Source: a bacterium
Lineage (GTDB): Bacteria > Patescibacteriota > Saccharimonadia > Saccharimonadales > JAUPVS01
Direction of reading: 5' to 3'
DNA: 64,000 nucleotides
Assembly (NCBI GenBank): GCA_029780855.1
Contig: JAKOXV010000003.1
Location: 84,953-148,952 of the forward strand
Below the pieces are notes generated by a model, which was not told where the DNA came from, ran no database searches, and worked only from the letters and a program-made list of their open reading frames with translations. A program made the translations under genes and the position numbers. Shown here in pieces: positions 11,433 through 59,994 of the stretch (positions are counted from its first letter, which is position 1; each line of letters begins with the position of its first letter).

Positions 11433-11559
11433 TTGTTTTCCATGTTAATCTCCGGGTATTGTAGCAACCTAAAACGCGCTAGTCGAATGTAAAACATTTT
11501 ATTGATAATGCTGAAATATTATGCTAGTGTTTATAGAGGTAGCTGATAAAATAAACATT

Positions 11560-12132
11560 ATGAAAACTAGGAATCAACGTGCTTCATCCAGAAAGCGGCT
11601 AATTATAGCCCTCATTATTATTGTCATACTATTCGTGCTTGCTGGACTAGCATATTACCTTTACCAAAAAAAACATCAGACAAAGATTTCTCCTGCGCCT
11701 ACTCCAACTATCACACAATTGCCTAAGCAGCCTGCATCAAACAACGGAGAAAAGAAGCCGACAACGCCAAATACCGTAAACGACGGAACTGCAACAGATA
11801 ATAATGGTCAGATTAGCGAGCCAATTTCATCATCTCCCTCACAATGGACTAGTTCTGCATCTGGTTTAGTTACGGTCAAGAAGCCGATTGCGGGTGAGGT
11901 AGTGACAAACGGTTTTGAGCTTGCAGGGACTGCAAAGGTCTCTAAGCTTCAGTACAGACTTTTAGATAATGAAGTTGGCGTCATCTCACGTGGTTTTATT
12001 AATGTTGTGTCGGGAAATTTCTCGGTAAATGTTAGTTTTTCGCCTCATAGCAAGGCCGGACGTCTAGATGTTTTCACTACTGATGATAATGGGGTTGAAT
12101 CTAATGAGGTTCAAATTAATGTCCGGTTTTAG
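11560..12132 (+). CDS. N-terminally anchored extracytoplasmic protein with an Ig-like C-terminal domain
   Basis: One TM helix (LIIALIIIVILFVLAGLAYYL), a Pro/Thr/Asn-rich linker, then a beta-rich ~90-aa domain. The start is uncertain (11521 or 11560). Confidence 0.45.
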   Translation: MKTRNQRASSRKRLIIALIIIVILFVLAGLAYYLYQKKHQTKISPAPTPTITQLPKQPASNNGEKKPTTPNTVNDGTATDNNGQISEPISSSPSQWTSSASGLVTVKKPIAGEVVTNGFELAGTAKVSKLQYRLLDNEVGVISRGFINVVSGNFSVNVSFSPHSKAGRLDVFTTDDNGVESNEVQINVRF

Positions 12133-14146
12133 TTTGCGGACCGGCAAAAGAGGTAAGGTATACGTCCCTCTTTTAGTCCTTCTGGGGGTTTTATTGTTTT
12201 CATTTATTTACGCTCCAAAAACGGAAGCAGCTAGCTACAACTACACCGATTTTCCAATGGAAGACTCTGTAATGAGAGCATCTAACACCATGACAGCTTC
12301 CCAGATTCAGAATTTCCTTACAGAAAAAGGTAGTGGCTTGGCTGTTTTTCAGGATGTTGAAGATTGCGGAAGCCCGAGCGGTTCACACTATTCGTACTAT
12401 ACCGCTTACTATCATTGCGGCAATACCATGTCTGCAGCCCAAATAATCTACGATGCTGCCCAGGCCTATGGCATAAACCCACAAGTACTTTTGGCAACAA
12501 TGCAGAAAGAACAGTCTTTGATTACCACGCCCAATCCTACCTCGTCTCAGCTAAATTATGCGATGGGGTATGGATGTCCTGATTCTGGAGGTTGCGGATA
12601 CGCCGGATTTTTCAATCAAGTGGATAATGCAGCCTGGCAATTGAGAACGGACATGGAGTTAGGCGCTGGTAACAATTGGTGGGGATATGCTCCTTCAAGT
12701 TATCCATGTAATGGTGCAACCCGTTACTATAGTGCTGCACTCAAAACGGGTAATAATGTAACATTTTATGATGATTATGGCACTGGCTATACAAATTTTG
12801 TCATGCCAAACATGGCTACTGCAACGCTGTACTGCTACACTCCTCACGTTTACCCAGGAAGCTCAAAACAATACTACTCAGGTAGCTACTGGTTTGTTTA
12901 CTACTTTAACCGCTGGTTCGTATCGTACTCTTGGCAGTGGATGAGCCAGTATGCGTATACCGACCAAACAAAGACAACTCCAAAGAGTCTCAATGGTATT
13001 CTACCGGGAGAGCGTGTGTATGTGGGCTTTACTGCAAAGAACACCGGAAACCAAACCTGGTCAAACACCGGGGCTAATCCGGTAATGGTGGGCACCGTAT
13101 CGCCACAAGAAAGAAATAGCATATTCTACGATGGTACTTGGTTAAGTCCCACTCGTCCCGCAACCCTCAAGGAAGCAAGTGTAGCGCCTGGACAGACCGG
13201 TACGTTTGAATTCTGGTTAACTATACCGGATTCTCCAGGAGGGTATAACGAAAGATTCAGCCTAATTGCTAATGGCACTGCTTGGTTTAACGATGTCGGT
13301 CTTAGCTATGGCATCGGTGTTGCACCCAGAATATTTTCTTGGCAGTGGATGAGCCAGTATGCGTATACCGACCAAACAAAGACAACTCCAAAGAGTCTCA
13401 ATGGTATTCTACCGGGAGAGCGTGTGTATGTGGGCTTTACTGCAAAGAACACCGGAAACCAAACCTGGTCAAACACCGGGGCTAATCCGGTGAGAGTAGG
13501 GACACTCTCTCCCCTGGAAAGATCTAGCCAGTTTGCTGACGGTTCATGGATTGGTAACAGCAGACCCGCAACCCTCAAGGAAGCAAGTGTAGCGCCTGGA
13601 CAGACCGGTACGTTTGAATTCTGGTTAACTATACCGGATTCTCCAGGAGGGTATAACGAAAGATTCGGGATAGTAGCCGAAGGTCTAAGGTGGTTTAACG
13701 ATGTCGGTCTTAGCTATGGCATCGGTGTTGCACCCAGAATATTTTCTTGGCAGTGGATGAGCCAGTATGCGTATACCGACCAAACAAAGACAACTGGAGT
13801 AGATCTGATGAACGTACACCCCGGAAATAAGATGTATGTCGGTTTTACGGCAAAGAACACCGGAAACCAAACCTGGTCAAACACCGGGGCTAATCCGGTA
13901 AGAGTAGGGACTACATCCCCGCTTGAGCGTACAAGTGTTTTCGCTCAAGATAGCGGATGGCTGGGACCAAGCAGACCCGCAACCCTCAAGGAAGCAAGTG
14001 TAGCGCCTGGACAGACCGGTACGTTTGAATTCTGGTTAACATCGCCCAGTACAGCGGGCTCATATAACGAAAGGTTTAATTTATTAAGCGAAGGCCGGAC
14101 TTGGTTTAATGATTTAGGCTTAAGCTACGGTATTAAGTCCCAGTAA
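12119..14146 (+). CDS. secreted protein with a lysozyme-like N-terminal domain and three tandem ~136-aa beta-sandwich repeats
   Basis: Signal peptide ending KTEA-AS. GINPQVLLATMQKEQSL resembles the catalytic-Glu helix of SLT/GH73-type muramidases. Three FSWQWMSQYAYTDQ...FTAKNTGNQTW repeats follow. Start chosen at 12119 because a GAGG lies 9 nt upstream. Confidence 0.6.
   Translation: MSGFSLRTGKRGKVYVPLLVLLGVLLFSFIYAPKTEAASYNYTDFPMEDSVMRASNTMTASQIQNFLTEKGSGLAVFQDVEDCGSPSGSHYSYYTAYYHCGNTMSAAQIIYDAAQAYGINPQVLLATMQKEQSLITTPNPTSSQLNYAMGYGCPDSGGCGYAGFFNQVDNAAWQLRTDMELGAGNNWWGYAPSSYPCNGATRYYSAALKTGNNVTFYDDYGTGYTNFVMPNMATATLYCYTPHVYPGSSKQYYSGSYWFVYYFNRWFVSYSWQWMSQYAYTDQTKTTPKSLNGILPGERVYVGFTAKNTGNQTWSNTGANPVMVGTVSPQERNSIFYDGTWLSPTRPATLKEASVAPGQTGTFEFWLTIPDSPGGYNERFSLIANGTAWFNDVGLSYGIGVAPRIFSWQWMSQYAYTDQTKTTPKSLNGILPGERVYVGFTAKNTGNQTWSNTGANPVRVGTLSPLERSSQFADGSWIGNSRPATLKEASVAPGQTGTFEFWLTIPDSPGGYNERFGIVAEGLRWFNDVGLSYGIGVAPRIFSWQWMSQYAYTDQTKTTGVDLMNVHPGNKMYVGFTAKNTGNQTWSNTGANPVRVGTTSPLERTSVFAQDSGWLGPSRPATLKEASVAPGQTGTFEFWLTSPSTAGSYNERFNLLSEGRTWFNDLGLSYGIKSQ
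12929..14146 (+). repeat. three tandem 408-bp in-frame coding repeats, mosaic of 100%-identical and strongly diverged blocks
   Basis: Unit starts (tcttggcagtggatgagccag) are at 12929, 13337 and 13745. Copies 1 and 2 are identical over their first 154 nt. All three share the block cccgcaaccctcaaggaagcaagtgtagcgcctggacagaccggtacgtttgaattctggttaac. Confidence 0.92.
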
Positions 14147-16201
14147 ATGTTGCAAATTTTATCTAAACAATTCTTCCTCGACACTCCACGCAGAAGATGG
14201 TTAATTGCCTTTCTGATATTCTTTGTAATGAGCTGGGTGTATATGGGCTCCTCACTCACAAAATGCAGTACTAGTGTGCTGGGTAACCCTGGTGACCATA
14301 CTGCAGGAATAATGTACTACACATGGGTACATCCCAGCAGTCCGCTGTTGGGCTATACAAACTTTACAAACTATCCGTTCGGTGAAAACTTATGGCAGCC
14401 CCTGGCGCTAACGTCAATTATTCCCTCTTCTCTCCATGTATTACTAACCTACTTAACAAACTTAGTGTGTGCCTGGAATCTTTTGGTCCTTATCGGCTAT
14501 ATGGGTTCTTGCCTAGCTATGTTCGGGTTAATTTATTGGCTAACAAGCAGGTTTGGTATCTCAATATTCGCAGCGTATGCGGCAACTTTCACTCCATATC
14601 ATTTATTTGCAAGCCAAGGACAAATTGCGGGTTTACTTAACTTCATATTCATTTTAGGGCTCTGGCAGTTTATACGTCTTTGGAAGTCTCCAAGTATTGG
14701 TAAAGCTCTGTTACTCGGACTCTTATTTGGTATTGGATTTTTTACTGATGGATACTTTATTTTAATTGGTGCAACCATGCTGCTCTCACTATGGATCAGT
14801 ACCATAACAGGAGCCCTGCTCATCAAGACGGAACGTAGACGAATCTTTATTAAAATTATTCCTTTCCTAACAATGGCAAGCGTGACTGCAGCAGTTTTTC
14901 TTCTACCACTATACTGGGTCCAGCTGAGGTTCTCGTCGCAGATAAAAGATATATTAGGAAATGCAAGAGGAAATATACTCAATGATGCACAGATTTATTC
15001 TGCCAAGCCGATAATGTATTTTAGCCGTTCAGAGTTAATTTATATTGGGACAATAATTTTTATACTTAGCATTATAGGCTCATATTTCACACTAAGAAAT
15101 ATATATAAATCGAAAACTAACAATTACGATTTTCGTACAAATATTGCAGGGTGGACTTCAATATTTCTTGTGATAGTTAGTGGATTAGTAAGTCTAAAGC
15201 CAATATTCTATATCTGGGGACATAGAGTGTATACGCCTTCATGGATTATCATTCACTTTACGGAATCTTGGCGAGTATTTGGACGTTTGTATGTTCTCGT
15301 AGACACAGGAGTTGTCGTCCTAGCTGCAATAGGACTCTATTATATTAGTCGAAAAAATAAAAAAGCTGGTCAATTCTTACTCATACTATCTTTTATGCTT
15401 CTTGTTGTAGATTTTTCAATACTTAAGATCGATCGACCTATTCCCGTATATAACTATACTAAGGCTCCGGCTGTATACAAATGGCTGAAAGAAAACAAAT
15501 CCGTTAAGGCGACAGCTGAATACCCACTCGATGAAATGCCCCAAGGAGCCTACTTATCCCAGTATTACACATTTCAAGAAATTAGTAGCAAGCCCATGGT
15601 TAATAGCATGCTGCCAAATAGCGATAAGGCATCGTTAAGGAGAAGTATTGCTGGAATTAACGATCCCCAAACCCTTCCAATCTTGAGAGCGCTTGGCGTA
15701 GGAGTTGTAAATATTCGACCCGCGGCACCAAATAATTTTTCGCTTACTTATCGTCATTCAATAAAAAATAATAATGAACTGCAGCACATCTTCTCCTACA
15801 ATACTCCGGCATTTTGGTTAGATTCATATGTAATCAAACCAGGGCGCGTTACTAGATACGCTCTGAAGATCAGAGATATAAAGTATTTTCAAGTAAAGGT
15901 CGATGATTACGGTCATGCAAAATATATGGTTGACAACAACCCAATACTAGATATCGAGAAACTGCCAGGTGTCAACTCAAAAACCGAAAACATAACTGTT
16001 AGCTTGGTTGCATCGGCAGATAGTGTGCGCGATCTAAAAATTACCCAGGGTTCTCGGGTTTTATGGAGCGGAGTACTACGAACCAAGCCAGAATTGCTTC
16101 TTTTTAGCGCTTCAACTAGTGCGCCAATACGATTTAGTAATGAAAAGAACACTTCACCTACGCATATAGAGATTTCCCAACTACAGATTATTGAGAAGTA
16201 A
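14147..16201 (+). CDS. large polytopic membrane protein, putative GT-C-type glycosyltransferase (paralogue A)
   Basis: 684 aa with ~12 TM helices and a ~250-aa C-terminal soluble domain. The first extracytoplasmic loop (GNPGDHTAG...NYPFGENLW) and C-terminal AEYPLDE...INDPQT blocks are shared with the 16188-18404 protein. Its ATG directly abuts the upstream stop. Confidence 0.5.
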   Translation: MLQILSKQFFLDTPRRRWLIAFLIFFVMSWVYMGSSLTKCSTSVLGNPGDHTAGIMYYTWVHPSSPLLGYTNFTNYPFGENLWQPLALTSIIPSSLHVLLTYLTNLVCAWNLLVLIGYMGSCLAMFGLIYWLTSRFGISIFAAYAATFTPYHLFASQGQIAGLLNFIFILGLWQFIRLWKSPSIGKALLLGLLFGIGFFTDGYFILIGATMLLSLWISTITGALLIKTERRRIFIKIIPFLTMASVTAAVFLLPLYWVQLRFSSQIKDILGNARGNILNDAQIYSAKPIMYFSRSELIYIGTIIFILSIIGSYFTLRNIYKSKTNNYDFRTNIAGWTSIFLVIVSGLVSLKPIFYIWGHRVYTPSWIIIHFTESWRVFGRLYVLVDTGVVVLAAIGLYYISRKNKKAGQFLLILSFMLLVVDFSILKIDRPIPVYNYTKAPAVYKWLKENKSVKATAEYPLDEMPQGAYLSQYYTFQEISSKPMVNSMLPNSDKASLRRSIAGINDPQTLPILRALGVGVVNIRPAAPNNFSLTYRHSIKNNNELQHIFSYNTPAFWLDSYVIKPGRVTRYALKIRDIKYFQVKVDDYGHAKYMVDNNPILDIEKLPGVNSKTENITVSLVASADSVRDLKITQGSRVLWSGVLRTKPELLLFSASTSAPIRFSNEKNTSPTHIEISQLQIIEK

Positions 16202-18404
16202 CACAACCTAAATCAGCTATTTCCATATTATATCCTTTGTCATTCGTTAAAGTTATTTTTGTTCCTGCCAATACCTGAACCGGTACATACTCTGAACCCA
16301 CAATTTTACTAAAAGCTACACCACTATCTGCAGTAACCGTAACGTTAGCCCTAGGCGCACCAGCAATCTTCACTTTAAAACACTGCTTCTGCACTTCTGT
16401 TGATTTGCTTGAACCAGGAATTGGTACTACATTAATTTCGCTATTATTTACAGCTTCGTACGACCAATCTGTAGCCGATTTGATAAGATTGGTGTTCCTA
16501 ACAAATCCTTTGCCAAGTGCAAGCATTTGTGAAGTTTTACTTTTTCTAACCTTAGCAATAACGATATTGTCATTTTTTACCGTTGGCGTATATGCTAATA
16601 GATTGAACTTACTTTGCGGAGCAGCGTACACAACTTCAAGACCATCTATATTCCCAATGACAGATTTATCAACGCCATGAACTACAACTGCATCTATACC
16701 CAGACCTCCGAGAACCTTAACTGTTTGCGGATCAGAAATATCTTTCAATGATTGCCTTAACTCTTCTTCTTTTGTGGTTGGAATATTGCCATTAAACAAG
16801 CGTTTCTTGTGGGCCAGCTGCATAGATAGGTAATATGCCATTGCGTTTGATTCGCCTCCTGCCTTTTCGAGTGGATATTCTGCTACTGTTTTAATTTCGT
16901 CTTGTCGACCAAGCCAGTTATATGCGGATGGTACATCAGTTTTGTAACTAAATGTTGAGAGCTTATTTCCAGAAAAAGGTCGAAATGCTTGGTACTCTAC
17001 CATGATAAGTCCAAAGAGTAGCACAAAAGCCACTGGGAGAACTTTTCTGTATTTAGAGAAATAATCAGAAAAGAACGCGAGAACTATAGCAAATAAAGTT
17101 ACTACCCCAAAGTTTACCACCACATACAAACGTGCAATTGTCCGCCAGGTAGTAGTTATTTTTAACATTGCATAGGAAGGAGTAGGAATGATTCCGAATA
17201 GCTTAACTGGCGGAAATGAGATTGCGGCAGCTAAAAGAACAACCCCCAGCATACCAAATATTACTAGTCTTTGATCATATCCTAATTTAAGTTTAGTTCT
17301 TCTACCGTTTAAACGCTCCCAGCCCATAACTACAAGTCCTGTGAGCGTAATAACTAGAATTGTAATACTAATCCCTACAGTGTCCTCACCGATTCCACAA
17401 GGAAAACCTTCATGTAAATCATTGACTGCCGTTACATAAACATCCTTTCCTACCATTCTTTCAAAAATAGGGTGCAATACAAACGGGGCGGCATACTCAT
17501 ACGGTAGGTTACTGCATGCTTTAGTTTCGTAAAAAACATTTCCCCTAACAGCAGCGACAGAAGTTGATATTTGGCGACTGTTTGAAATGGTTATTCCTAG
17601 CAGTGGTGTGACTAGCATTAGAAACAGTGCAACAGCTAAGAATATCGTTTTAGATTTTTTAAGCGTGTTTACAATATTTCTATTGCCAGTAGTGAAAAAT
17701 TGAATCACCAACCAAACAATAGGAAGAGAAAGGACTATAGGTGCTGCTAATAGAGAAAAGTATGGGTCGAAGTAAAAGCAGACTGCAAGAAGCCCAGAAA
17801 AATATACAATATCTCTCTTACGTTTTTTTGTGACAAGGTTGAAGAATGTCCAAGCCACACCAATTAGTAAAGCCTGAAAACCGTATCCAGGATGGCCACC
17901 AACTTTCATTTGATAATACGGAGTAAACGAAACGGCATAGCCAGAGAGCCAAGCAATCCACTTCCTCCGCGATAAAGCATACACAAAACCAAACATTGTT
18001 AGAGCACTAACAAAGAAACCGAACATATTAAATACATTGTAGCCACACACAGCACCAAATACCTTAGATGAACCCCACAGCGCAACCGATTGGCCCGATA
18101 GACTGTAGTTAACAGGGCTATAAAGGTTTTCGCCAACAGGGAAATTTGTTACATTTTCGCTCGCACCCAATGGTGGCTGGCTCGGTGATATTCCGAATTT
18201 CCAGACAGGCCCCGCGGTATTGTCGCCAAATCCGTATAATGTATTTTTACAGTCCCATACACTCGGCCCCATGTAATAAACAGAAAAGAAAAGATATGAA
18301 ACAATTACAAAACCTACAAACCAGTACTTCTTGATAAGGCGAAGCATTAATTGAACCGCCTCGATAACAGTTATACGTTTAGCTATATTTTCACTCTTGT
18401 GCAT
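16188..18404 (-). CDS. large polytopic membrane protein, putative GT-C-type glycosyltransferase (paralogue B)
   Basis: 738 aa with the same architecture as paralogue A (GFGDNTAG...NFPVGENLY; AEYPLEK...ISDPQT). The convergent 3' ends overlap by 14 nt. Confidence 0.5.
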   Translation of the reverse strand: MHKSENIAKRITVIEAVQLMLRLIKKYWFVGFVIVSYLFFSVYYMGPSVWDCKNTLYGFGDNTAGPVWKFGISPSQPPLGASENVTNFPVGENLYSPVNYSLSGQSVALWGSSKVFGAVCGYNVFNMFGFFVSALTMFGFVYALSRRKWIAWLSGYAVSFTPYYQMKVGGHPGYGFQALLIGVAWTFFNLVTKKRKRDIVYFSGLLAVCFYFDPYFSLLAAPIVLSLPIVWLVIQFFTTGNRNIVNTLKKSKTIFLAVALFLMLVTPLLGITISNSRQISTSVAAVRGNVFYETKACSNLPYEYAAPFVLHPIFERMVGKDVYVTAVNDLHEGFPCGIGEDTVGISITILVITLTGLVVMGWERLNGRRTKLKLGYDQRLVIFGMLGVVLLAAAISFPPVKLFGIIPTPSYAMLKITTTWRTIARLYVVVNFGVVTLFAIVLAFFSDYFSKYRKVLPVAFVLLFGLIMVEYQAFRPFSGNKLSTFSYKTDVPSAYNWLGRQDEIKTVAEYPLEKAGGESNAMAYYLSMQLAHKKRLFNGNIPTTKEEELRQSLKDISDPQTVKVLGGLGIDAVVVHGVDKSVIGNIDGLEVVYAAPQSKFNLLAYTPTVKNDNIVIAKVRKSKTSQMLALGKGFVRNTNLIKSATDWSYEAVNNSEINVVPIPGSSKSTEVQKQCFKVKIAGAPRANVTVTADSGVAFSKIVGSEYVPVQVLAGTKITLTNDKGYNMEIADLGCVTSQ

Positions 18405-33176: not shown

Positions 33177-34268
33177 ATGAAACGAATTGCCATTGATGCC
33201 CGCGAGTTGCGCACCAGTACCGGACGCTATATTGAGCGGTTACTACACTACTTACAACTGATTGATTCGGATCACGAATATGTAGTGCTTCTAAAACCTA
33301 ATGATTTTGATAGTTGGACCCCAACCAACAAGAAGTTTTCTAAGGTTGCTTGCCCCTACAAAGAGTTTACTTTTGCAGAGCAATTAGGGATGCATAGTCA
33401 GATCCGTTCACTAAAAGTGGATCTCGTCCATTTCCCTATAGTTCAGCAGCCAATCCTGTACCGGGGCGATGTAGTAACGAGCATGTTAGATCTCACTACA
33501 GTTCGTTTTAGGAATCCTGCAAAAAATGTTGCGATATTCTGGATCAAACAACAGGTTTACAAGGTAGTAAACAAGGTGGTGGCAAGAAAGTCCAAGCACA
33601 TCATCACCATTAGCGACTTCGTAAAAAACGATATTGCTCAATATGCCCACATACCCACCGACAAAATCACGACTACTTACTTGGCGGCGGATAAGATTAC
33701 TGATGAGTCGGAGACTGTCGCAGACATGAAAGGAAAGCAGTTTATTATGTACGTTGGGCGACCGCAGCCACACAAAAACCTAGAGCGACTTGTTCAAGCA
33801 TTTAAGAAACTTAATGAGACACATCCGGAACTTCATTTGGTGCTAGCGGGTAAAAAAGATGTGCTGTTTGAAATGCTCGAACAGTACGTAAAAGATAACG
33901 GTGTCAAAAATGTGTACTTCACCGGTTTTGTAAGCGAAGGGCAGCTTAGGTGGCTGTACGAAAACGGCCAGGCGTATGTATTTCCAAGTTTGAGTGAAGG
34001 GTTTGGCTTGCCAGGCCTAGAAGCGATGCAGTACAACCTGCCAGTGGTATCCAGCAATGCTACCTGCCTGCCCGAGGTTTACAAAGATGCTGCGCTGTAT
34101 TTTAACCCCGTAAGTATTGACGATATGGCGATAAAAATTAAGCAGGTCTTAAGCGATAAAAAGCTTGCCAATGATTTAGCAAAAAAGGGAAGCGAACTGG
34201 TCAAAACGTATTCTTGGGAACGCATGGCCCAGCAAACCCTAGACGTATATCGATCTGTAATCGACTAA
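33177..34268 (+). CDS. glycosyltransferase, GT-B fold (GT4-like)
   Basis: VGRPQPHKN and SEGFGLPGLEAMQYNLPVVSS motifs. Confidence 0.8.
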   Translation: MKRIAIDARELRTSTGRYIERLLHYLQLIDSDHEYVVLLKPNDFDSWTPTNKKFSKVACPYKEFTFAEQLGMHSQIRSLKVDLVHFPIVQQPILYRGDVVTSMLDLTTVRFRNPAKNVAIFWIKQQVYKVVNKVVARKSKHIITISDFVKNDIAQYAHIPTDKITTTYLAADKITDESETVADMKGKQFIMYVGRPQPHKNLERLVQAFKKLNETHPELHLVLAGKKDVLFEMLEQYVKDNGVKNVYFTGFVSEGQLRWLYENGQAYVFPSLSEGFGLPGLEAMQYNLPVVSSNATCLPEVYKDAALYFNPVSIDDMAIKIKQVLSDKKLANDLAKKGSELVKTYSWERMAQQTLDVYRSVID

Positions 34269-36985
34269 GACCGCTTCAGAATCATGTGGCAGATTACTGC
34301 CATAGTACTAACGCCTACTATCGAGAGAATAACAACCAGAATAGGTGTAATTGGTTTGTGTTCAGTTTTGATGTTGGTGAAGCTGGCTGCGGAAGAAGGG
34401 ATTCTATTCAAGTACTTAGGTGTTGACGTTTCAACACCCGCAACTTGGGCTGTTTGTAAATTGACACGGTTGCTATCGGGAGTAGTTTGAACAGAAGCGG
34501 CACTTACGATTCCGTTCAATTGGCTTTCTCCGCCACTAACAACAGGAATGGGCTCCGTTTCAATTGGCAAAGTAACTCTTTCAGACACCAGATCTCCATT
34601 AACCACCCAAGCCTGGAGACTACCAGAAAGATTAAATGAACCCGGAATCACTATCGACTCCTCAGTGTCTGCAGCACTAACAATAGGATCCCCGTTAGAG
34701 TCAGCAATAAACACGAGGGTGCCAATATTGGCCCCCTTCCACGAAACACGAATTGAACCGTCAGATATTTTCGTTGCAGTTAGGCTTGTGGGGATGGCTG
34801 GTGGCGTCAGGTCTCTGGGTGCGTCTTGAGTCTGTTCAACTGTAACGGGCAATGTGAGCAACGCCTGCTGTTTGTTTTCTGAATAACCAGCGACGGTCAA
34901 CATTCCCGTACTATTGACGTCTTTAAATATATGGGTTGTATTGGGCGAATCTGTAGATTCATCCCACTCGCCATCATTGTTGTAGTCCCACTTATAGATT
35001 TGGTATGTCTGGCCACTTTGAGAAACATCTAGAATCGTCGGAACATTAACATGCGCGATCACGCTACTCTGGGGCTTGAAGCCATTCTGTGACAACGGAC
35101 TCTGGGTGGTATCCAGATTGAACGACGTTAGACTTAAGGTTTTTGGCTTATTGCTAAGAACGCGCCACATTACATCTGAGTAAGCCGCTTTATTGAAGGA
35201 ATCATACGTAAGAAATAACCCGCCGGTAGATTCGGCTATTTTTTTAAGCTGGTCATACATTTTACCCATATCGGGATAATCGGCCCTTGGGTATGGCTTA
35301 TTTGGAACTACGATAGTTATTGCAACACCTTTAGCAGTTGCCAAGGCGAGTTCGTCCTGTAACTTACGGGTGATTTCATGTATATACCACTTATTGCCAT
35401 CATTATGGGCAGTACATACCTGTTGCGTAAGCACCATCCTGGTGTTTTCACAGATAAGCGGTCCAAGCTGGGTAGAGACCGGGGCATTAGTATTATCTGG
35501 AGTACATACATTTTTATCGGGCATACCAAAATAGGAAAGTAACGACGTATTGCATATATCGTAGGTAACACTCTCTTTTGCGGGTCGATTGGTAAACAGA
35601 ACCAGGTTCTTAGTTGCCCCTTCCCGCCAGTTCGCCTGAGTAACCGCCCTCTCGATAGCCAATCCGTGCGGATCGGGGTAGTTTGTACCGCCACCGTAAC
35701 TCCTCTGACCCCATCCGACATTCCATAAAAAGTTATAGGTCAAGTTTCCACTTGTAGTCCTTTGGAATGGTTTAATCTGCTGACGCATAGTTATGCGCGC
35801 AAAATCCTTTTGATATGCATCAAAATCCTCGTTATAGTCCATGATTCCGTACTGTACATTAGTAAAGAATCCCTCTAGCGGCTCCACGACATTGTCGGTC
35901 TCGTGACGTAAGTACCCAAGCAGGTCATCTACCCATGTACTTGTATTAACGAGATACATGAAATCTATTGGCTTATCATTTGCAACCGTAGGAATATTTT
36001 GGAGTACGCCCTTGTCATTATCTACACCACCTTTGTTTCTGTTGCGCGCATAAAGGATAGGGGAAAGTAGTTGAATAGTTTCATCGGCCGCTTGTTTAGC
36101 ACCTAGCCAGCTGTACCGCTCATGACCTGCCGCAACGGTACTCATCGATAGGCCACCAGATCGAGTAACCGCCGTATTAATACCGTCGCCACCCGTACAG
36201 ACAAAATCATCATCAAAGCACCAGCTGAAAGTTTTGAGCTTCATATCTTCTGGCGTGTATGGATCTCGAGCGCCTGCCAAACCGCGGCTTTTTTCTCCGG
36301 CTGTGCCGCGCTTCCATGGATACGGCTTTGATTTTTGCCAGAACTTCAGGGGGTTGTAGTCGCTTGCCTGAAATTTTGGATCTCCAAAAAGATTGAGTGC
36401 CGCAACGCGTGAACGTTCAAAGGCAGTAAGTTTGAATATTGCCCGTCCCATGAGGTCTGCTCCCTGAGAGTAGCCACCCAGCACTATTTGCTGCTCGGGA
36501 CAGTGAGCTATTTCATCCTTAATATACCCTACTGTTTCTTCCTCGCCGTCAGCTACACTGTTTTGATAGTCACCCCAGGGCCACCAAGTAAGCTTTGCGT
36601 TAATGGCATTATTAATTGTGGCAGGCCCAAATATACCGACCGCGGGGTAACCGCGGTCGTTGTACTTGTTCGGAAAGTTGTGTACCGAAACTGCTTTATA
36701 GTCTACTTTTGGGTAGTCTCGATTTATATTCTTCTCTATTTGCTGAAAGAAGGCCCCGGGTACTTCCTCTAGTCTCTTGAATGGAGCATCAAAAGGTTTT
36801 TCTAGATATTCATTACCGTTATTTGAAGATGATCCTCTCGCAAATATAACTAGTACATCCGCACATTTGTCGGTCTGATTATCTATCCTTTGTGCAGTAC
36901 CTAGATTTCGGAAGAGCGCAACAGAAACAAGTAGGGTAATTACTACAATCGATAGCCTACGAGTTTGCAAAGACGAAAAGTTCAT
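34265..36985 (-). CDS. large C-terminally anchored surface protein: cutinase-like alpha/beta hydrolase, vWA-like region, PKD-like and Fn3-like domains
   Basis: Signal/anchor RRLSIVVITLLVSVALF. Cutinase signatures CADVLVIFARGSS and the GGYSQGA nucleophile elbow. WDYNNDGEWD is PKD-like and SLTATKISDGSIRVSWKG is Fn3-like. The C-terminus ends in a TM helix, ITPILVVILSIVGVSTMAVICHMILKRS. Confidence 0.65.
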   Translation of the reverse strand: MNFSSLQTRRLSIVVITLLVSVALFRNLGTAQRIDNQTDKCADVLVIFARGSSSNNGNEYLEKPFDAPFKRLEEVPGAFFQQIEKNINRDYPKVDYKAVSVHNFPNKYNDRGYPAVGIFGPATINNAINAKLTWWPWGDYQNSVADGEEETVGYIKDEIAHCPEQQIVLGGYSQGADLMGRAIFKLTAFERSRVAALNLFGDPKFQASDYNPLKFWQKSKPYPWKRGTAGEKSRGLAGARDPYTPEDMKLKTFSWCFDDDFVCTGGDGINTAVTRSGGLSMSTVAAGHERYSWLGAKQAADETIQLLSPILYARNRNKGGVDNDKGVLQNIPTVANDKPIDFMYLVNTSTWVDDLLGYLRHETDNVVEPLEGFFTNVQYGIMDYNEDFDAYQKDFARITMRQQIKPFQRTTSGNLTYNFLWNVGWGQRSYGGGTNYPDPHGLAIERAVTQANWREGATKNLVLFTNRPAKESVTYDICNTSLLSYFGMPDKNVCTPDNTNAPVSTQLGPLICENTRMVLTQQVCTAHNDGNKWYIHEITRKLQDELALATAKGVAITIVVPNKPYPRADYPDMGKMYDQLKKIAESTGGLFLTYDSFNKAAYSDVMWRVLSNKPKTLSLTSFNLDTTQSPLSQNGFKPQSSVIAHVNVPTILDVSQSGQTYQIYKWDYNNDGEWDESTDSPNTTHIFKDVNSTGMLTVAGYSENKQQALLTLPVTVEQTQDAPRDLTPPAIPTSLTATKISDGSIRVSWKGANIGTLVFIADSNGDPIVSAADTEESIVIPGSFNLSGSLQAWVVNGDLVSERVTLPIETEPIPVVSGGESQLNGIVSAASVQTTPDSNRVNLQTAQVAGVETSTPKYLNRIPSSAASFTNIKTEHKPITPILVVILSIVGVSTMAVICHMILKRS

Positions 36986-37421
36986 ATGTCCTGAAGTCAT
37001 ATGAAACTCCTAGACTTACTGCATCAATAGAACATTCGTATTCAACTACTCGTCGTCCTTCACTATCCGTATTGTCTGTCATAACAGGATCTTTACATCC
37101 TGTTTCTTCAAGTAAATCCTTTAACATACTGACAATGTTTTTATCTTTTAGTGTAAAGGTTTTACTTTTTAGGAAGCAGGCCGTTTCAGATTCTATTGGA
37201 CATTGGCGACCAGCTATGCCTTTGTTGATAGTCTCTTTTTCTAGCTTCCAGTCAGCGGGGAACGTCATTCGATTAAATACCCGCTCCACGTCACTGTAGT
37301 TGGGGGTGGTTGAGGTAAAAGGATATACAGCAAAGTTAACGTAAAGTAATCCAAAAATAATAATAACTACACCAAATAAGATGCTTAAAACTTTTAACGT
37401 CTTATGGTTACGCAAGTTCAC
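36957..37421 (-). CDS. hypothetical N-terminally anchored protein
   Basis: 154 aa with one TM helix (VLSILFGVVIIIFGLLYVNF) and a Cys-containing ectodomain. No recognisable motif. Confidence 0.5.
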   Translation of the reverse strand: MNLRNHKTLKVLSILFGVVIIIFGLLYVNFAVYPFTSTTPNYSDVERVFNRMTFPADWKLEKETINKGIAGRQCPIESETACFLKSKTFTLKDKNIVSMLKDLLEETGCKDPVMTDNTDSEGRRVVEYECSIDAVSLGVSYDFRTYELFVFANS

Positions 37422-44973: not shown

Positions 44974-46926
44974 CTACTTCTTCCTAAACCATCTTATTGT
45001 TGAACCGTCCCAGCCGGTGGGGCCAATCTTCTCCACATTATCCGCCATTGGTGCGCGGCTATCAAGCGAGGATGATGCGATCGGCCCGTTAAAGCCTGGC
45101 TGATTCCCTACCCAGAAGAAGGTGTGGCCGTTATCTTCCCCGCTGGCAGTGGTATAAAAGCCAACATCTCCCGGCTGTAAGTCGGCACTGTTAGTAATAA
45201 TGCCAAGCTCTTGCCAGTTTTCACGTGCCCACTTTAGCTGGGTTGGAGTGGCCCCTCCTTTGCCGGCGTAGTTATAGTTGGGTTCAAAACCGCTGTCGAT
45301 CATGGCAGTAGTCACAAATCCTCCACAGTCGACACCCGGATAATTTATTCCCCCGACATACCGTCCTTCGCTGCGTGCTTTTGCTACAGCATCGGCATAT
45401 TCAGGCTTCATGGTTTGGTATGGTTTTCGGTGGTATTCCGGCCAGGCGTAGTTTAGAGCGGTGGCAATTATTCCCTGCCCATTAACGGCGCTACCACCAC
45501 AGCCGTTTGTGCCCGTCCCGGTGGTTGGTACAGCTTTTTCTATCCCCTCAACAATTGCGTTAGCGTAGGCGGATTTTTGCTCGTCATTCAGTCCGCTACC
45601 ACCACCCGCTTCTAGGTAAATCCACGGAACTTTAGCAAACAATTGAACGAGTGGAATGTTTCCTGGTTCCAATCCGGCACGCCCGTCAAAGCTATTGTCT
45701 TTTACCTGCACCTGAGCGCCATTGGCCATTTCCTTGGCGTCACGGGCTGCTTTCATGGTCTGGGCATACTGCTGGCTTTTATCGGCAATAGCTTGATCGG
45801 TAAAGGTAACTTTATTGGGTTCGGTACCTCGGTATAAGCCGACCTTTTGGGTATAGATTTCTCCCCAGGTTCCAAAATCTATTCCTGGGTTGTCATGAAT
45901 ACTAACCGCAACGGTAGCATTGGCGCTGGTGCCAAGATCCGCTCGCTGCCGCAAGGAAACCGTATCGTTTACGTCATTTTTAGTCATGACCACGCGGTAA
46001 CCGGCTTGTTCCAGAGCGGTTTTAGCACGGCTGGCAACGTCAAACACATCGTTCATTTCTGGCTGGTTTGGATAGTCATGGTCGGTTAAACCGGTAGCGG
46101 GGTCTTTGGTGGATACATCTGTTCCGCTATGTCCAGGATCCAGTAGGATAACCGCTTGACCGGTACTTGTGGAAGTAGACGTAGAGGTAGATCCAGATAT
46201 GCTGGTGCTGGCAGTGGCTTGTAGGCCGCCGGCTTTTGCTTGATCCAGGATACTTTGCGCATTGGCTATACGTTCTGGCTGTGGCGCTCCATCGTGTCGT
46301 TCGTATTCAACTTCAAACAATAGCGTCGCAGAAGCTACGTCTGTTGTAGCTTTTAGTTTATCGGCAAAGCCTTTTAGGTATCCTTCGGTGAGTGTGTACC
46401 AGAGGTAGTCTAGCTGGAGGGTTAAATCACCGGCGATTATCCCCTTTTCTTGTGAGATCCGGCGCAGGTCATCCTTATAGTTGCTTGCGGTAAACTGCAC
46501 GATACCGTAGCCGGCGCCGCCCGGGGGCACGTTATCATCCAAACTGGATGGCTGCCCAGCAACCGAGATTTCGCCCCTGGAGTTGGCGAATCCATACTGT
46601 ACGAGGCGAGGTTCAAAATGGGATTCACTCTGCATGTTGCCCAAGATACCAGCCGCCTGGAAATCGGTCAGTCCCTTACCCACCAAGTAGTTGAATATTT
46701 TTGCCATATTATCATCACCGGCAAGGATTGATGATGAGGTAGCTTGACACTCTTTGCTGGGGTCGTAGTAGACAGTGTTATTGATGATAGAACGTAAGTC
46801 GCTGTAGGTTACGCCGGCGCTGGCTTTTGCGGTCAGCACGATGAATGATGACATGAACAAGGCCATGAAGAGCGAAAAAGCTCGGAACAGCAGCAGTTTC
46901 TTTTTGATAGTTAGCAGTTTTTTCAT
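44974..46926 (-). CDS. secreted three-domain peptidoglycan hydrolase: lysozyme-like, MurNAc-L-Ala amidase and NlpC/P60-or-CHAP-like domains
   Basis: A signal peptide is present. AAGILGNMQSESHFEP matches the tail-lysozyme-type motif. ILLDPGHSGTD...AVSIHDN matches the Amidase_3 pattern. GVDCGGFV...GDVGFY...GHTFFWVG is a papain-like Cys/His pattern. Confidence 0.75.
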   Translation of the reverse strand: MKKLLTIKKKLLLFRAFSLFMALFMSSFIVLTAKASAGVTYSDLRSIINNTVYYDPSKECQATSSSILAGDDNMAKIFNYLVGKGLTDFQAAGILGNMQSESHFEPRLVQYGFANSRGEISVAGQPSSLDDNVPPGGAGYGIVQFTASNYKDDLRRISQEKGIIAGDLTLQLDYLWYTLTEGYLKGFADKLKATTDVASATLLFEVEYERHDGAPQPERIANAQSILDQAKAGGLQATASTSISGSTSTSTSTSTGQAVILLDPGHSGTDVSTKDPATGLTDHDYPNQPEMNDVFDVASRAKTALEQAGYRVVMTKNDVNDTVSLRQRADLGTSANATVAVSIHDNPGIDFGTWGEIYTQKVGLYRGTEPNKVTFTDQAIADKSQQYAQTMKAARDAKEMANGAQVQVKDNSFDGRAGLEPGNIPLVQLFAKVPWIYLEAGGGSGLNDEQKSAYANAIVEGIEKAVPTTGTGTNGCGGSAVNGQGIIATALNYAWPEYHRKPYQTMKPEYADAVAKARSEGRYVGGINYPGVDCGGFVTTAMIDSGFEPNYNYAGKGGATPTQLKWARENWQELGIITNSADLQPGDVGFYTTASGEDNGHTFFWVGNQPGFNGPIASSSLDSRAPMADNVEKIGPTGWDGSTIRWFRKK

Positions 46927-46929: not shown

Positions 46930-49900
46930 CTACGGTGCCTGCCCTACTCCATTTACGACCGTGTCGGATAGAGCTGCATAGTTGAAGGGGTGGATGTTTC
47001 CGGGTTTGTAATTGTCAGGTGCGGCGCTTGCCCAGTCAATTACCGTAAAGCCCTTGGAGCTCGCCAGGCGGTTCAGTATGTCATTCATAGCTGGATACTG
47101 GCTTCCGGAGTCAGCGGTTGAATACAGGTTAGTCCAGTAGATCTTGGTGTTTGGATTTAAGCCCTTTATTTTATCGATCAGCGCTGAAACATTCCCTTCA
47201 AATGCTGGATCTCCAGGGTCATTGGTGCCCAGCCCTACCACGACTACGCCGGCGTTTTTGACGATATCCTGATCCTGGTCGACCTGCGTAAAGCCACCAG
47301 GCGTAGGACCGCTGCTGCCGGTTCCGCCACAACCAGGACCACTTAGGTCAGTTTTAAGGTGTCGGCCACAGAGTGCTGATATGTCGATCTTTCGCCAACC
47401 TTTTTGGGTCAGTTTATCGTTGAGTGAGCCGCTATCACGCATTCCAACGGTTAGTGAATCACCAAGAACATAAATGTTACTGTTTTGTGCACCGGAACTG
47501 GCCGAATCTTTGGTGGGGTTAGCTAGGTCTTGGGTAAGGATTTCTACCGAGGTTGCATCCAGCCCTTTATATATGCGGTAGTGCAGGGCTTCATCGGTGG
47601 AAAGCGAGGCTACGCTACAATCTGCATCTTCTTTTACCCGTTTGTTGGCATCGTACTGACTGGCGTCGGTAAAACACTTCTGGTACTTGTTATCGAGGTC
47701 GGCGATGTTGTAGTGAGCTTTTATATAGGCTTCATTACCGGAGAGTGAAAAATCTTCATCGGTTTTCATTTTGTTGATTTCGTCTTGCGAATAGCCCCAT
47801 TGCAACATTCCGTAGTGTGGGTCGTAACCATTTGCTTCAGCCGCCAGTGCTGGTTTGGTTACAAAAGAGAATGGCATAGATAAGGTGCGCAGTGAAAAAA
47901 TAGAACCGATCTTCATGAAACCAGTCCGTAAGGTATTTGATATACCCAGCAAGCTGGTGGGGGTTTGGGCAACCACGCTACCGGTTATTGAGTACGGGTT
48001 GTGTATAGAGAAGTACCGAGCGAATACGCTTTGTCGTGCCCAGTGATCTTTTAGATCCTGGCGGCTGGCGGCATCTGCAACTAACGTTTCCTGTTCAGTC
48101 ATTGGCCGGCCGTATAGGCTAGTGCGGATAGATTGGTTCTGGGCTACATCGGTACCAATACTTGCCCGTTCATAGTAGTCAGCGCCCTTCTCCATTCCAG
48201 TAAAGGACTGGTTTGATACAGCCATGCTGACATACTGCAGACCCAGGGCATAGAGGCTCATACCGCCGAGTGTCAACATTCCCTTTGCGGAGAATACGCC
48301 TCTCGCGCTACTGACGACCGACTTGCCCAATTCATTGATGATAATTGTCGCCATGCCCTTGCCACCTTCTTCTTTAGCAACTGCGGCTTCGGGACCAGTG
48401 AGCACACCAATCGCAGTGGTGACCGCAACCTCTGCTACGACTCCAGCGATTAGACCCTCAGGACTGAGGAGTGCATTACAAAACTGTTTATCTACTTGAT
48501 CAGTGGCACCGCCAATTAAACCGCCGAAACCAGGGATATTCTTTGCGACTCCGGTTAAACCGCCAGAAGCTAGAAATGTGGGACTGGTTACGGCATTGAT
48601 GATGTTAGTCAAGGTGCTGCTGGCGCCGCCCGGCTCCAGCCTGGGCGCCTGAAAGTTTTCCGGATACGTCGGAGTTTGGTTGCTATTAACCTGGTACTGG
48701 TATGCAGGTGAAGCTTCTGCATCGGCAAGCTGTACGCTGCCGGCTCCTATGGCGTTACTCAAACCACCGGCGTCACCATAGCCGGTTTTGGCTTGGTCGC
48801 CCATGGCAGTTACATGTAACCCTTCCCGGGCTGCGTTATCCATGTTGGATCTGGCGGCTTCTTCTAAGCGGTCAGGACTAAATGCTTCGTGAGCCATACA
48901 GGCCATGGAGGCAACAATAGTGGCGGTTCCTACTTTGCTGGCAACATCGGCCACTTTGGTTGCGGTTTGGGTATTAGCGGTGAATGATTTTTGGGCGGCT
49001 TCATAGAGTTCAGGCGGGTATGGTTTACCACGGTCATCGAGGAATTTACGGATTTTATCGGGATTTGTAAGGTCGTCTTTGGTTTGATCAACAATATCAA
49101 TACCGGTGTCAGCAGGTACTTTGCCCTCCGTGACTTTTTGGTTGGCTTCCACTAAATTTTCTGTTTGAGCTTTTACTTCACTTAAACCAACAAAGTTTCT
49201 GGCTGCTTGCCGCCACGCAGAAAAGTCAAAACCGATATTTTTGGCCACCGTATCAAACGCCGCGCTCCGGATGTAGCGTTCTGAAAACGCCTCATTATCG
49301 CTCACTACAGACTTAACGCTATCAACGAACTTTGAGCGAACCTGGGCACGTTCCCTAAAATTACTAATCTTGCCAAGATCTGAATATGACTCGCCATGCC
49401 CAAGATCCCGGGCTACCGTATCTAGTGTCACTCGCCTATTCTCTATCTGCACTCCGTTGACGTTTCCGTCTCCATCGAACGTAAAGTTGAACTTGCCGTC
49501 GCTGCCCAAGGCGGCCAGGTCTCTGTTGGGGTCTATTCCCCGTACTTTCTGCCACAGCGAGCGGTCAGCAAGCTCTAATGACCCGTTTCCGCGGGCCAAA
49601 GCACCATCAAACAAGTTTTGGGTGTTCCGCTCATTCATTATGCCGTTCAAGCGCGCATAGCCAGCTCCGGTGAGTACTTCAGAAAAATGGATCACCTTGA
49701 GTGACGACATCGCAATAAAGATAATTATGATCGCCGCCAGACTTAGAACGCCGGTGATTCCGAGTGCAAAAAAGCCCTTTTTACGGCGGTTACGGCGTTG
49801 CGTATTTGGCGGGGTGTCATTGTAGAAACCGCCACCATTTTCTAGATCGTCTTGCTCTTCCGATTCTGCTTCGGTGGTTGCTTCGCCAGTTCCGGCGTCT

Positions 49901-49959
49901 TCCTCGGCAAGCGCCAAGCCCGCTGCATCCAATCTATCTTGCTGGTCGGTATCGGCCAC
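46930..49959 (-). CDS. 1009-aa membrane protein with an acidic N-terminus, a large unknown ectodomain and a C-terminal SGNH/GDSL hydrolase domain
   Basis: TM helix FFALGITGVLSLAAIIIIFIAM. Gly/Ala-rich hydrophobic segments occur around aa 470-600. The C-terminus has IYVLGDSLTVG (block I) and VVVGLGTNDPG (block III). Confidence 0.6.
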   Translation of the reverse strand: MADTDQQDRLDAAGLALAEEDAGTGEATTEAESEEQDDLENGGGFYNDTPPNTQRRNRRKKGFFALGITGVLSLAAIIIIFIAMSSLKVIHFSEVLTGAGYARLNGIMNERNTQNLFDGALARGNGSLELADRSLWQKVRGIDPNRDLAALGSDGKFNFTFDGDGNVNGVQIENRRVTLDTVARDLGHGESYSDLGKISNFRERAQVRSKFVDSVKSVVSDNEAFSERYIRSAAFDTVAKNIGFDFSAWRQAARNFVGLSEVKAQTENLVEANQKVTEGKVPADTGIDIVDQTKDDLTNPDKIRKFLDDRGKPYPPELYEAAQKSFTANTQTATKVADVASKVGTATIVASMACMAHEAFSPDRLEEAARSNMDNAAREGLHVTAMGDQAKTGYGDAGGLSNAIGAGSVQLADAEASPAYQYQVNSNQTPTYPENFQAPRLEPGGASSTLTNIINAVTSPTFLASGGLTGVAKNIPGFGGLIGGATDQVDKQFCNALLSPEGLIAGVVAEVAVTTAIGVLTGPEAAVAKEEGGKGMATIIINELGKSVVSSARGVFSAKGMLTLGGMSLYALGLQYVSMAVSNQSFTGMEKGADYYERASIGTDVAQNQSIRTSLYGRPMTEQETLVADAASRQDLKDHWARQSVFARYFSIHNPYSITGSVVAQTPTSLLGISNTLRTGFMKIGSIFSLRTLSMPFSFVTKPALAAEANGYDPHYGMLQWGYSQDEINKMKTDEDFSLSGNEAYIKAHYNIADLDNKYQKCFTDASQYDANKRVKEDADCSVASLSTDEALHYRIYKGLDATSVEILTQDLANPTKDSASSGAQNSNIYVLGDSLTVGMRDSGSLNDKLTQKGWRKIDISALCGRHLKTDLSGPGCGGTGSSGPTPGGFTQVDQDQDIVKNAGVVVVGLGTNDPGDPAFEGNVSALIDKIKGLNPNTKIYWTNLYSTADSGSQYPAMNDILNRLASSKGFTVIDWASAAPDNYKPGNIHPFNYAALSDTVVNGVGQAP

Positions 49960-59657: not shown

Positions 59658-59658
59658 G

Positions 59659-59994
59659 ATGTTTAGTTTTTTGCTGTATAAAACCGCCGTACGTTTTGCC
59701 GAAGCAATCAACGTCAATAGCCTACCGGGAGCAAAGAACCCTGACCAGACCCAGGCCTATGTGAGTAAGAACGGCGCGATTTTAGAAATTACTCGCCTGG
59801 TATTTGGCGCTTTTGGTGCAATCGCAGTGTTAATTATTGCCATAGCGGGCGTACAGTACGTGATTTCTCAGGGTGAAGCGCAAAAAATTTCTAAAGCAAA
59901 AAACACCATTATTTATGCAGTGCTCGGCCTGATCATTTCAATCACCGCCTACGGAATTGTTAGCTTTGTACTGAATAGGATCAATGTATCATGA
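59659..59994 (+). CDS. T4SS pilin-like protein 3
   Basis: Starts 1 nt after the upstream stop. It has the helix - VQYVISQGEAQKISKAKNTIIYAVLGLI - helix module and no obvious cleavable signal peptide. Confidence 0.6.
   Translation: MFSFLLYKTAVRFAEAINVNSLPGAKNPDQTQAYVSKNGAILEITRLVFGAFGAIAVLIIAIAGVQYVISQGEAQKISKAKNTIIYAVLGLIISITAYGIVSFVLNRINVS

Follow-up and report, generated by a model that had tools for sequence, protein, structure and literature searches.

A single gene in a 64,000-nucleotide stretch of Saccharibacterium DNA (assembly GCA_029780855.1, contig JAKOXV010000003.1, positions 84,953 to 148,952; the whole stretch is called the window below) raises a simple question: how can three tandem coding units of one protein be identical at every nucleotide over some stretches and saturated with silent changes over the stretches between them? 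The gene encodes a 675-aa product, which is best explained as an extracytoplasmic envelope protein of a Saccharibacterium (TM7/Patescibacteria) that combines a signal peptide or membrane anchor, an N-terminal domain and three FW domains (Table 1). Our answer, which we consider very probable, is that the repeat array is in partial concerted evolution by intragenic gene conversion.

Table 1. Positions in the window of the FW-repeat gene, of the shared tracts and islands within it, and of the adjoining genes
Feature	Position	Strand	Remarks
Coding sequence of the 675-aa envelope protein	12119 (ATG)-14146	+	Open reading frame list; >1,600 homologues
Putative N-terminal signal peptide or membrane anchor (MSGFSLRTGKRGKVYVPLLVLLGVLLFSFIYAPKTEA before AS)	12119-12232	+	AlphaFold2 helix and sequence reading
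N-terminal globular domain, ~230 aa, alpha-rich	12233-12928	+	AlphaFold2, Foldseek, invariant residues
Repeat unit 1, FW / NBR1-Ig-like domain	12929-13336	+	aa 271-406
Repeat unit 2, FW / NBR1-Ig-like domain	13337-13744	+	aa 407-542
Repeat unit 3, FW / NBR1-Ig-like domain	13745-14143	+	aa 543-675
Homogenised tract, 155 nt	12929-13083 = 13337-13491	+	beta1, beta1-beta2 loop, beta2; pS = 0
Exact tract, 102 nt	13157-13258 = 13565-13666	+	Maximal exact matches
Exact tract, 105 nt	13283-13387 = 13691-13795	+	Unit 1/2 junction = unit 2/3 junction
Block in all three units, 65 nt	13157-13221 = 13565-13629 = 13976-14040	+
Island V1 of unit 3	13796-13849	+	beta1-beta2 loop, GVDLMNVHPGNKM, plus a few synonymous changes
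Island V2 of unit 1	13084-13156	+	beta3 and long beta3-beta4 loop
Island V4 of unit 1	13256-13282	+	Second half of beta5 and start of beta5-beta6 loop
Unit 3 C-terminal third	14041-14143	+	beta4-beta5 loop, beta5, beta6
Upstream gene, membrane-anchored, ~200 aa, Gmad2-type Ig-like domain	11521-12132	+	Pfam PF10648, E 8e-6
684-aa polytopic membrane protein, no Pfam family	14147-16201	+	Downstream neighbour
738-aa polytopic membrane protein, paralogue-like, no Pfam family	16188-18404	-	Convergent

The array is regular in its layout. Tandem Repeats Finder reported a single array at 12929-14040 with a period of 408, 2.7 copies and 86 % matches, and translation yields in-frame units of 136, 136 and 133 aa, the third with a one-codon insertion and a shortened C-terminus. 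An initial annotation made from the sequence alone had placed the unit starts correctly (12929, 13337 and 13745), recognised that the repeats are in frame, and quoted three peptide variants that are exact on translation. Pairwise nucleotide identity is 88 % between units 1 and 2 (u1-u2), 72 % for u1-u3 and 74 % for u2-u3. Units 1 and 2 have long exact tracts in common, the longest of which extends to unit 3 over its opening 51 nt (13745-13795). One block is exact in all three units, with 3 matches in the window against 0 expected, and it encodes PATLKEASVAPGQTGTFEFWL, i.e., the end of the beta3-beta4 loop and strand beta4 of the predicted fold described below. The identity of this block and of the tract that opens units 1 and 2 had been seen earlier, with lengths of ~66 and 154 nt that exact matching adjusts to 65 and 155 nt.

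Between the shared blocks lie islands of strong divergence. In a block-wise Nei-Gojobori comparison, the shared blocks have no synonymous differences per synonymous site (pS = 0), whereas the islands are saturated (pS 0.57-1.15), with nonsynonymous differences per nonsynonymous site (pN) of 0.26-0.61. At V1, unit 3 differs from units 1 and 2, themselves identical there (pS 0.64, pN 0.61). At V2 all three units are mutually different (pS 0.84-1.09, pN 0.26-0.31), the counterparts in units 2 and 3 lying at 13492-13564 and ~13900-13969. V3 is the beta4-beta5 loop, and V4, with counterparts at 13664-13690 and 14075-14101, has a pS of 0.57-0.87 and a pN of 0.45-0.50. In the last unit, divergence from units 1 and 2 extends over the whole C-terminal third and affects even the synonymous sites of conserved residues.

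This alternation of identical and strongly diverged blocks, noticed in the initial annotation, is real and clustered beyond chance (P<5e-5). Identical and different sites form 55, 110 and 98 runs against 85, 161 and 153 expected, a deficit reached in 0 of 20,000 permutations. A Sawyer-type test restricted to polymorphic sites finds for u1-u2 a longest concordant run of 27 against a permutation maximum of 26 (0/20,000). The decisive test was limited to codons for residues that the three units share: synonymous differences occur at 29 of the 87 degenerate codons of this kind and fall into 18 runs instead of the 39.7 expected (0/20,000), and in the beta3-beta4 island every such codon (12/12) differs synonymously. 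Synonymous sites are thus identical in some stretches and saturated in others, which selection at the protein level cannot cause, and the stretches must therefore differ in ancestry or age. Third-position GC content at 12929-14143 is 0.50 in the homogenised blocks and 0.39 in the islands, compared with 0.43 in the N-terminal domain; in this small sample, the higher value of the homogenised blocks is possibly a trace of GC-biased conversion.

The same type of mosaic recurs in the protein family. A search of a 5.8-billion-protein collection returned more than 1,600 homologues; the exact window protein is absent from that collection, the best match being 67 % identical, and the named homologues are almost all from Candidatus Saccharibacteria or Saccharimonadales. 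They are built alike, with 3-6 FW repeats behind an N-terminal domain of ~230-270 aa, and three repeats are the commonest arrangement (75 of the listed proteins). A Parcubacteria protein (P0025; homologues are cited by such numbers) has the same repeats (51 % identity) behind an Amidase_2 domain. Identity between the repeats of one protein ranges from 0.27 to 1.00 across the family, with 100 % identical pairs in P0009, P0037 and P0052. We retrieved the DNA of seven homologues, from independent NCBI and JGI assemblies, and made codon maps, in which P0004, P0023, P0030, P0037 and P0052 have the same type of mosaic. In P0004, repeats r2 and r3 are 94 % identical, while r1 has zero-difference tracts at codons 6-35 and at the RPARMIEPSVAPGQTATFEFWMTAP block and is saturated between them. 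In P0037 (L006) and P0052 (L007), r2 and r3 are 99-100 % identical. The non-adjacent r1 and r4 of P0030 (L008 1001-3502) are identical at the DNA level over ~115 codons, whereas r2 and r3 differ from them and have an identical 40-codon block of their own; conversion or duplication must therefore reach beyond neighbouring units.

Comparison between genomes identifies the source of the identity. The counterpart of the 65-nt block is homogenised in P0004, P0037, P0052 and P0030, yet it differs between genomes. For the conserved block that is most homogenised everywhere (C3, RPAxxKExSVAPGQTGTFEFW), nucleotide identity is 0.84 within genes and 0.64 between genomes (maximum 0.74). Since the block is alike inside genes and different between genomes, its identity is made within each genome and does not reflect constraint at the nucleotide level. 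An RNA or DNA signal constraining the 65-nt block was accordingly considered and rejected, as synonymous sites vary freely between genomes. Together with the adjacency of unchanged and saturated blocks and the permutation results, this pattern bears out the earlier proposal that gene conversion homogenises part of the repeat. The variable columns of the window protein coincide with the high-entropy columns of the family (Mann-Whitney p = 4e-9), which is expected if conversion persists where sequence is conserved. The window gene is unremarkable in the strength of its contrast: with variable columns defined from the family, its difference between core and loops at the amino-acid level ranks 56 of 118. 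An outlier status (rank 1 of 75) was rejected, because the columns had been chosen from the window itself and the comparison was circular.

The islands are old. Divergence between units in the islands (pS ~0.87, pN ~0.3) equals the divergence of the repeats from those of the closest orthologues (pS 0.86, pN 0.29), and this equality places the origin of the islands far back. The nearest neighbour of every conserved block is one of the gene's own other repeats (100 %), whereas that of the islands is a repeat of another species. For V2 of r1, the best matches are the first repeats of P0001 and P0096 (0.70). V1, which r1 and r2 have in common, has its nearest neighbour in r2 of P0015 (0.92), a match suggesting that r1 acquired it from r2. 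Over 21 residues, FNLLSEGRTWFNDLGLSYGIK, V4 and the C-terminus of r3 are the same as in r3 of P0042 (V4 match 1.00). The islands are therefore old sequence that escaped conversion and no product of recent diversification; they stand partly at their original positions, and the core has been overwritten since the lineages split. Across the whole family, same-position repeats have an identity of 0.43 in island columns and different-position repeats 0.41; positional identity is almost erased, so the islands turn over too, on longer times. Stable position-specific repeat identities across the family were accordingly discarded on this very weak signal, though such identities are present among the nearest relatives. 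Relative to the closest orthologues, the FW repeats evolve about twofold faster (pN 0.29-0.32) than the N-terminal domain (0.14-0.16), and the relatives rank differently by region, P0001 being closest by whole protein and P0015 and P0017 by the repeats.

The mosaic, its statistical support, the age of the islands and the recurrence in the family are direct findings; from them we infer the recombination mechanism, the direction of transfer and any functional role that the islands may have. Short-tract non-reciprocal homologous recombination between misaligned repeats would recently have overwritten tracts of 50-155 nt in the conserved beta-sandwich core, and occasional unequal exchange would duplicate or delete whole units, which would account for the 3-6 copies and the identical repeat pairs in the family. 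Conversion tracts would start and stop in conserved segments because identity is long enough for strand exchange only there. Four segments would escape overwriting and keep their ancient divergence, namely beta3 together with the long loop behind it, the distal half of beta5, and the beta1-beta2 and beta4-beta5 loops. These faster-evolving segments would drop below the identity threshold and become self-perpetuating islands, protected by their mismatches, by selection against convertants, or by both.

Several points weigh against this explanation of the array. The whole sample is three repeat sequences in a single assembly, and the Sawyer-type test that supports u1-u2 is marginal for u2-u3 (P = 0.066) and not significant for u1-u3 (P = 0.69). 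The 155-nt exact repeat exceeds usual short-read k-mers, so that islands on either side of an identical tract could have been joined wrongly in the assembly. The polarity of transfer is ambiguous, as old repeats that were homogenised and young repeats that received foreign islands would look alike. Fully diverged repeats of the P0001 type show, by eye, only short exact matches in the conserved block C3; identity must therefore have been reset in the past by the duplication of whole units. A protein scan of genome contigs for strain or species relatives returned one distant locus only, and in metagenome contigs a protein scan and an exact 30-mer scan were both empty, so that these collections offered no comparison at the level of strains or reads.

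The fold of the repeats bears on what the islands may do. Pfam PF16158 (N_BRCA1_IG, the FW domain of NBR1) matches the protein in three stretches with 74.7 bits against a cutoff of 28 bits (E 1.1e-20), and the same match is precomputed in nearly all homologues. The full-length AlphaFold2 model, based on a 71-sequence alignment, has a predicted local distance difference test score (pLDDT) of 89.9, with values above 90 throughout the repeats. Each unit is predicted to be an immunoglobulin (Ig)-like beta-sandwich of six main strands (beta1 WQWMSQYAY, beta2 RVYVGFTAKN, beta3 VxVGT, beta4 TGTFEFWLT, beta5 GGYNERFxxxA and beta6 LSYGIG) with a long beta1-beta2 loop and a ~30-residue loop after beta3. 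The predicted layout agrees with that of an FW domain, two sheets of three strands each, and the beta-sandwich scaffold proposed from the sequence thus stands. The companion proposal that the variable segments are loops holds in part: 26 of the 38 variable columns lie outside strands (Fisher p = 0.056), but the segment reading FSLIANGTA, FGIVAEGLR and FNLLSEGRT in the three units is the C-terminal half of beta5.

Similarity to solved structures is faint. The PDB sequence searches (one unit, the N-terminal domain and three profiles) gave nothing significant, and the profile aligns weakly to human NBR1 (4OLE) over the KNTGNxxW strand. The full-length fold search returned mostly generic Ig arrays, with an Nbr1 FW-Ams1 entry (7vqo) at rank 47 whose matched chain A may be Ams1. 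FW domains are characterised by four conserved tryptophans. Each unit has tryptophans at positions 2, 4, 44, 71, 96 and 120; W44 is invariant in the family and W71 nearly so, and in the weak profile alignment W44 is the sole one that can be aligned to an NBR1 tryptophan. In the cryo-electron microscopy structure of CtNbr1 FW with Ams1, the cargo-specific interface is made up of strand beta5 and two loops, beta3-beta4 and beta5-beta6. The former loop is wrapped around beta5 and beta4 on one side of the sandwich, and a conserved pocket between beta1 and beta6, which binds an N-terminal di-glycine, is closed by the beta1-beta2 loop (PMC9233695). With a strand equivalence to Nbr1 that rests on the Pfam match and the weak alignment to 4OLE, V2 and V4 would lie together on the specific-contact face and V1 at the pocket. 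The AYTD motif after beta1 is nearly invariant in the family, and its acidic residue may sit where the acidic end of the Nbr1 pocket lies. Bacterial FW domains have no known function in the literature (PMC9233695, PMC9582228), and a literature search linking Saccharibacteria with NBR1 or FW domains found none. In most family members, the beta3-beta4 loop of repeat 1 contains a pair of cysteines (FCDxxWLGCNRPA) that probably form a disulphide; neither is present in any repeat of the window protein (FYDGTWLSPT and its counterparts).

Why the islands persist amid converting sequence has two candidate answers. Nucleotide divergence of ~40 % over 70 nt by itself impedes strand exchange in homology-dependent recombination, and such a mismatch barrier alone would give the observed pattern. 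Selection may act in addition or instead, if each FW domain binds its own ligand and convertants that erase an island are removed. We regard this as possible but as having less than an even chance, and selection for three distinct specificities as plausible. Some islands do match same-position repeats of relatives, and islands with converting tracts on both flanks have remained unconverted long enough for synonymous divergence (dS) to saturate. In theory, and in the example of the opsins, a divergence peak between converting duplicates is the signature of selection for difference (PMC3924837). The positions are also suggestive, as the islands match interface I of CtNbr1 FW (beta3-beta4 loop, beta5 and beta5-beta6 loop) and the pocket-closing beta1-beta2 loop (PMC9233695). 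However, the islands carry no surplus of replacement changes, their ratio of nonsynonymous to synonymous divergence (dN/dS) being below 1 with dS saturated. The near-equal family-wide identities of same-position and different-position repeats and the middling family rank of the window protein likewise speak against selection. Whole repeats, including the islands, are homogenised in P0037, P0052 and P0009, and distinct islands are thus not obligatory. The initial annotation had held that particular loops are kept different, a claim that, as one about selection, does not follow from data which the mismatch barrier fits equally well. It had also suggested that the repeats could be wall- or glycan-binding modules of three specificities; the one FW ligand characterised so far is a protein N-terminus.

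A second possibility reverses the polarity. The units would be young tandem duplicates into which islands were pasted from another FW gene or from related Saccharibacteria DNA, as in mosaics of the pneumococcal or neisserial type. Close amino-acid matches of islands in other lineages would fit such import, e.g., the 21 residues common to r3 and r3 of P0042 in proteins that are 53 % identical overall, and so would the different ranking of relatives by whole protein (P0001) and by repeats (P0015, P0017). We nevertheless judge it unlikely. At least four separate short imports would be needed, all into the same less-conserved segments, and a six-frame hidden Markov model (HMM) search found no second FW copy within the 64-kb window, nor did the scanned genome and metagenome collections contain a donor. 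Internal conversion accounts more simply for the finding that one and the same conserved block has been homogenised repeatedly in unrelated lineages.

An assembly artefact, i.e., a chimera or collapse of strains or of extra repeat copies, is very unlikely. Concern arises from the exact repeats of 155, 105 and 102 nt, which are longer than common assembler k-mers, and from the fact that most relatives are metagenome-assembled genomes. Mis-assembly could swap islands between units, but it could not create identical tracts or islands. The reading frame is intact and in frame with the commonest, three-repeat architecture, and the same mosaic appears in independent NCBI and JGI assemblies.

Diversity-generating retroelements (DGRs) are common in Patescibacteria, but programmed hypervariation of the loops by a DGR or by silent-cassette recombination is hardly credible here, as synonymous sites of conserved residues differ within the islands too and all copies are in frame in one expressed open reading frame. 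Mutagenesis of the DGR type was rejected because the differences carry no adenine bias (A stands on one side in 25-35 % of them, which is the base composition). No template or cassette copy of any block occurs elsewhere in the 64-kb window, where the search for a reverse transcriptase was not exhaustive. The alternation of variable and invariant blocks does resemble vls-type cassettes (PMC3828179); silent-cassette donors of the vls or pilS type were rejected, since the six-frame HMM search of the window located FW domains in the 12119-14146 frame only.

With intragenic conversion retained as the preferred explanation, the rest of the protein can be considered. The AlphaFold2 model has a hydrophobic helix at aa 15-30 with flanks of low pLDDT, and a signal-peptide cleavage site would fall between MSGFSLRTGKRGKVYVPLLVLLGVLLFSFIYAPKTEA and AS. 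A second candidate ATG lies upstream at 12068, and the start of the coding sequence overlaps the end of the upstream open reading frame. The N-terminal domain gives a confident model of its own (pLDDT 87.6, predicted template modelling score 0.88) and has the family invariants K130-E131 (in QKEQS) and LYxYTP. In the window protein, it has no Pfam, NCBIfam or PDB sequence match; in six diverse homologues, it has no Pfam match even at E up to 5; and a profile search of PDB sequences with it returned no hydrolase. Foldseek matches have E values of 0.06-5, and the tops of both lists are almost all wall hydrolases of the lysozyme superfamily. Those against the PDB (E 0.56 and above, non-significant) are headed by AtlE, LytB, SagB, the Acp autolysin, FlgJ, g-type lysozymes and MltC/E/Slt, and those against BFVD (E 0.06 and above, probability up to 0.99, likewise non-significant) by phage glucosaminidases, transglycosylases and tail lysins. 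The domain is possibly a very diverged lysozyme-like (GH73/GH23-like) hydrolase fold, a reasonable lead and not a result. The initial annotation had called it lysozyme-like; sequence matches do not uphold this, while the non-significant structural matches to GH73 glucosaminidases, g-type lysozymes and lytic transglycosylases lean towards it.

The surroundings of the FW gene are a surface-glycan biosynthesis cluster, with Bac_transf, GT4, GT2, PMM, ManC-like, UDP-glucose dehydrogenase-like, UXS-like and DegT aminotransferase genes as neighbours. The upstream Gmad2-type gene and the start of the FW gene have 14 nt in common, and most related loci in which the position is visible have an open reading frame of 182-194 aa immediately before the homologue. 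The overlap and the recurring small upstream frame suggest that the two genes are translationally coupled or form a two-protein unit. Downstream of P0001, P0004 and P0037 there is a convergent gene for a membrane protein of ~700 aa, and in some loci glycosyltransferases follow the gene. The 684- and 738-aa membrane proteins of the window have similar N-terminal motifs and may belong to the glycan cluster as GT-C-like or polymerase components that have gone unrecognised.

Elsewhere in the window, a tandem array of at least five paralogous small genes (121-138 aa) occupies 59241-61318 (+) together with 58612-59268, and the three that were scanned match T4SS_pilin / TrbC-VirB2 (PF18895, E 1e-9 to 2e-15). 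A 154-nt direct repeat (D5, 60644/61128, 71 %) is the conserved C-terminal part of two of these pilin-like genes. The locus also takes in 44974-46926 and 49994-51919, both on the minus strand, and near the array are a TraG/VirB4-like P-loop ATPase and a wall hydrolase with Phage_lysozyme2 and Amidase_3 domains. Together these genes make up a type IV secretion locus of the Patescibacteria type in which the pilin set is expanded. Two very large open reading frames encode a 911-aa protein with a cutinase domain (34265-37000, minus strand) and a 1009-aa protein with a C-terminal GDSL lipase domain (46930-49959, minus strand). They may be secreted lipolytic or esterase proteins, which would be of interest for an epibiont on mycolate- or lipid-rich hosts.

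The array has partial parallels in better-known systems. Tandem-repeat surface proteins of monoderm bacteria, such as Rib/alpha C and the cell-wall-binding repeats of autolysins, undergo concerted evolution and change in copy number. The protein described here is like them in being secreted, in its catalytic or functional head, its C-terminal tandem repeats that range from identical to diverged, and its variation in copy number among relatives; it is unlike them in having the FW fold instead of LysM, SH3b, choline-binding or SPOR modules, and in being homogenised in patches instead of whole units. Mosaic divergence under conversion has also been described for repeat-bearing surface proteins. 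It is already well described for duplicated genes, and this locus is another, clear but ordinary, case. The red/green opsins and the protocadherins (the Teshima and Innan model) have the same statistical signatures, with long identical stretches and sharp divergence peaks (PMC3924837; bioRxiv 10.1101/2025.10.29.685298). In contrast to those duplicates, the units here are domains within one bacterial reading frame, the tracts are 50-155 nt long and any selection on the peaks is conjectural. In Borrelia vlsE and the vls cassettes, invariant and variable blocks likewise alternate and conversion is anchored in the invariant ones (PMC3828179), but the window has no silent cassettes and no sign of switching within a population, and all copies stand in one polypeptide. 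With the FW domain of NBR1, the locus has in common the PF16158 match in all three units and the predicted Ig-like sandwich with its long beta3-beta4 loop. The FW domains here are, unlike that of NBR1, extracytoplasmic, bacterial, tandemly triplicated and fused to a putative wall hydrolase, and their sequence similarity to solved FW structures is non-significant. The known role of the NBR1 FW domain is intracellular cargo recognition with a pocket for an N-terminal di-glycine (PMC9233695), whereas bacterial FW domains have no known ligand; the sole characterised FW ligand is a protein N-terminus.

The mosaic itself adds little that is new, as partial concerted evolution of tandem repeats is well understood. 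The value of the locus lies in what it marks, a large family (>1,600 members), wholly uncharacterised, nearly all from Saccharibacteria and situated in surface-glycan clusters, whose FW domains follow a putative wall hydrolase and whose bearers live attached to other bacteria. The homogenised core and the retained islands form a natural map of the domain surface that is free, or required, to differ. A bolder reading, for which we would give rather long odds, is that the islands are the ligand-contacting face and that three FW domains would give an epibiotic Saccharibacterium multivalent, differentiated recognition of walls or host surfaces (e.g., of free N-terminal amines of peptidoglycan peptides, as the Nbr1 pocket would suggest by analogy), with conversion, anchored in the invariant blocks, shuffling or resetting the specificities of lineages. 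If true, it would provide the first function for bacterial FW domains and a mechanism for the evolution of host range in Patescibacteria.

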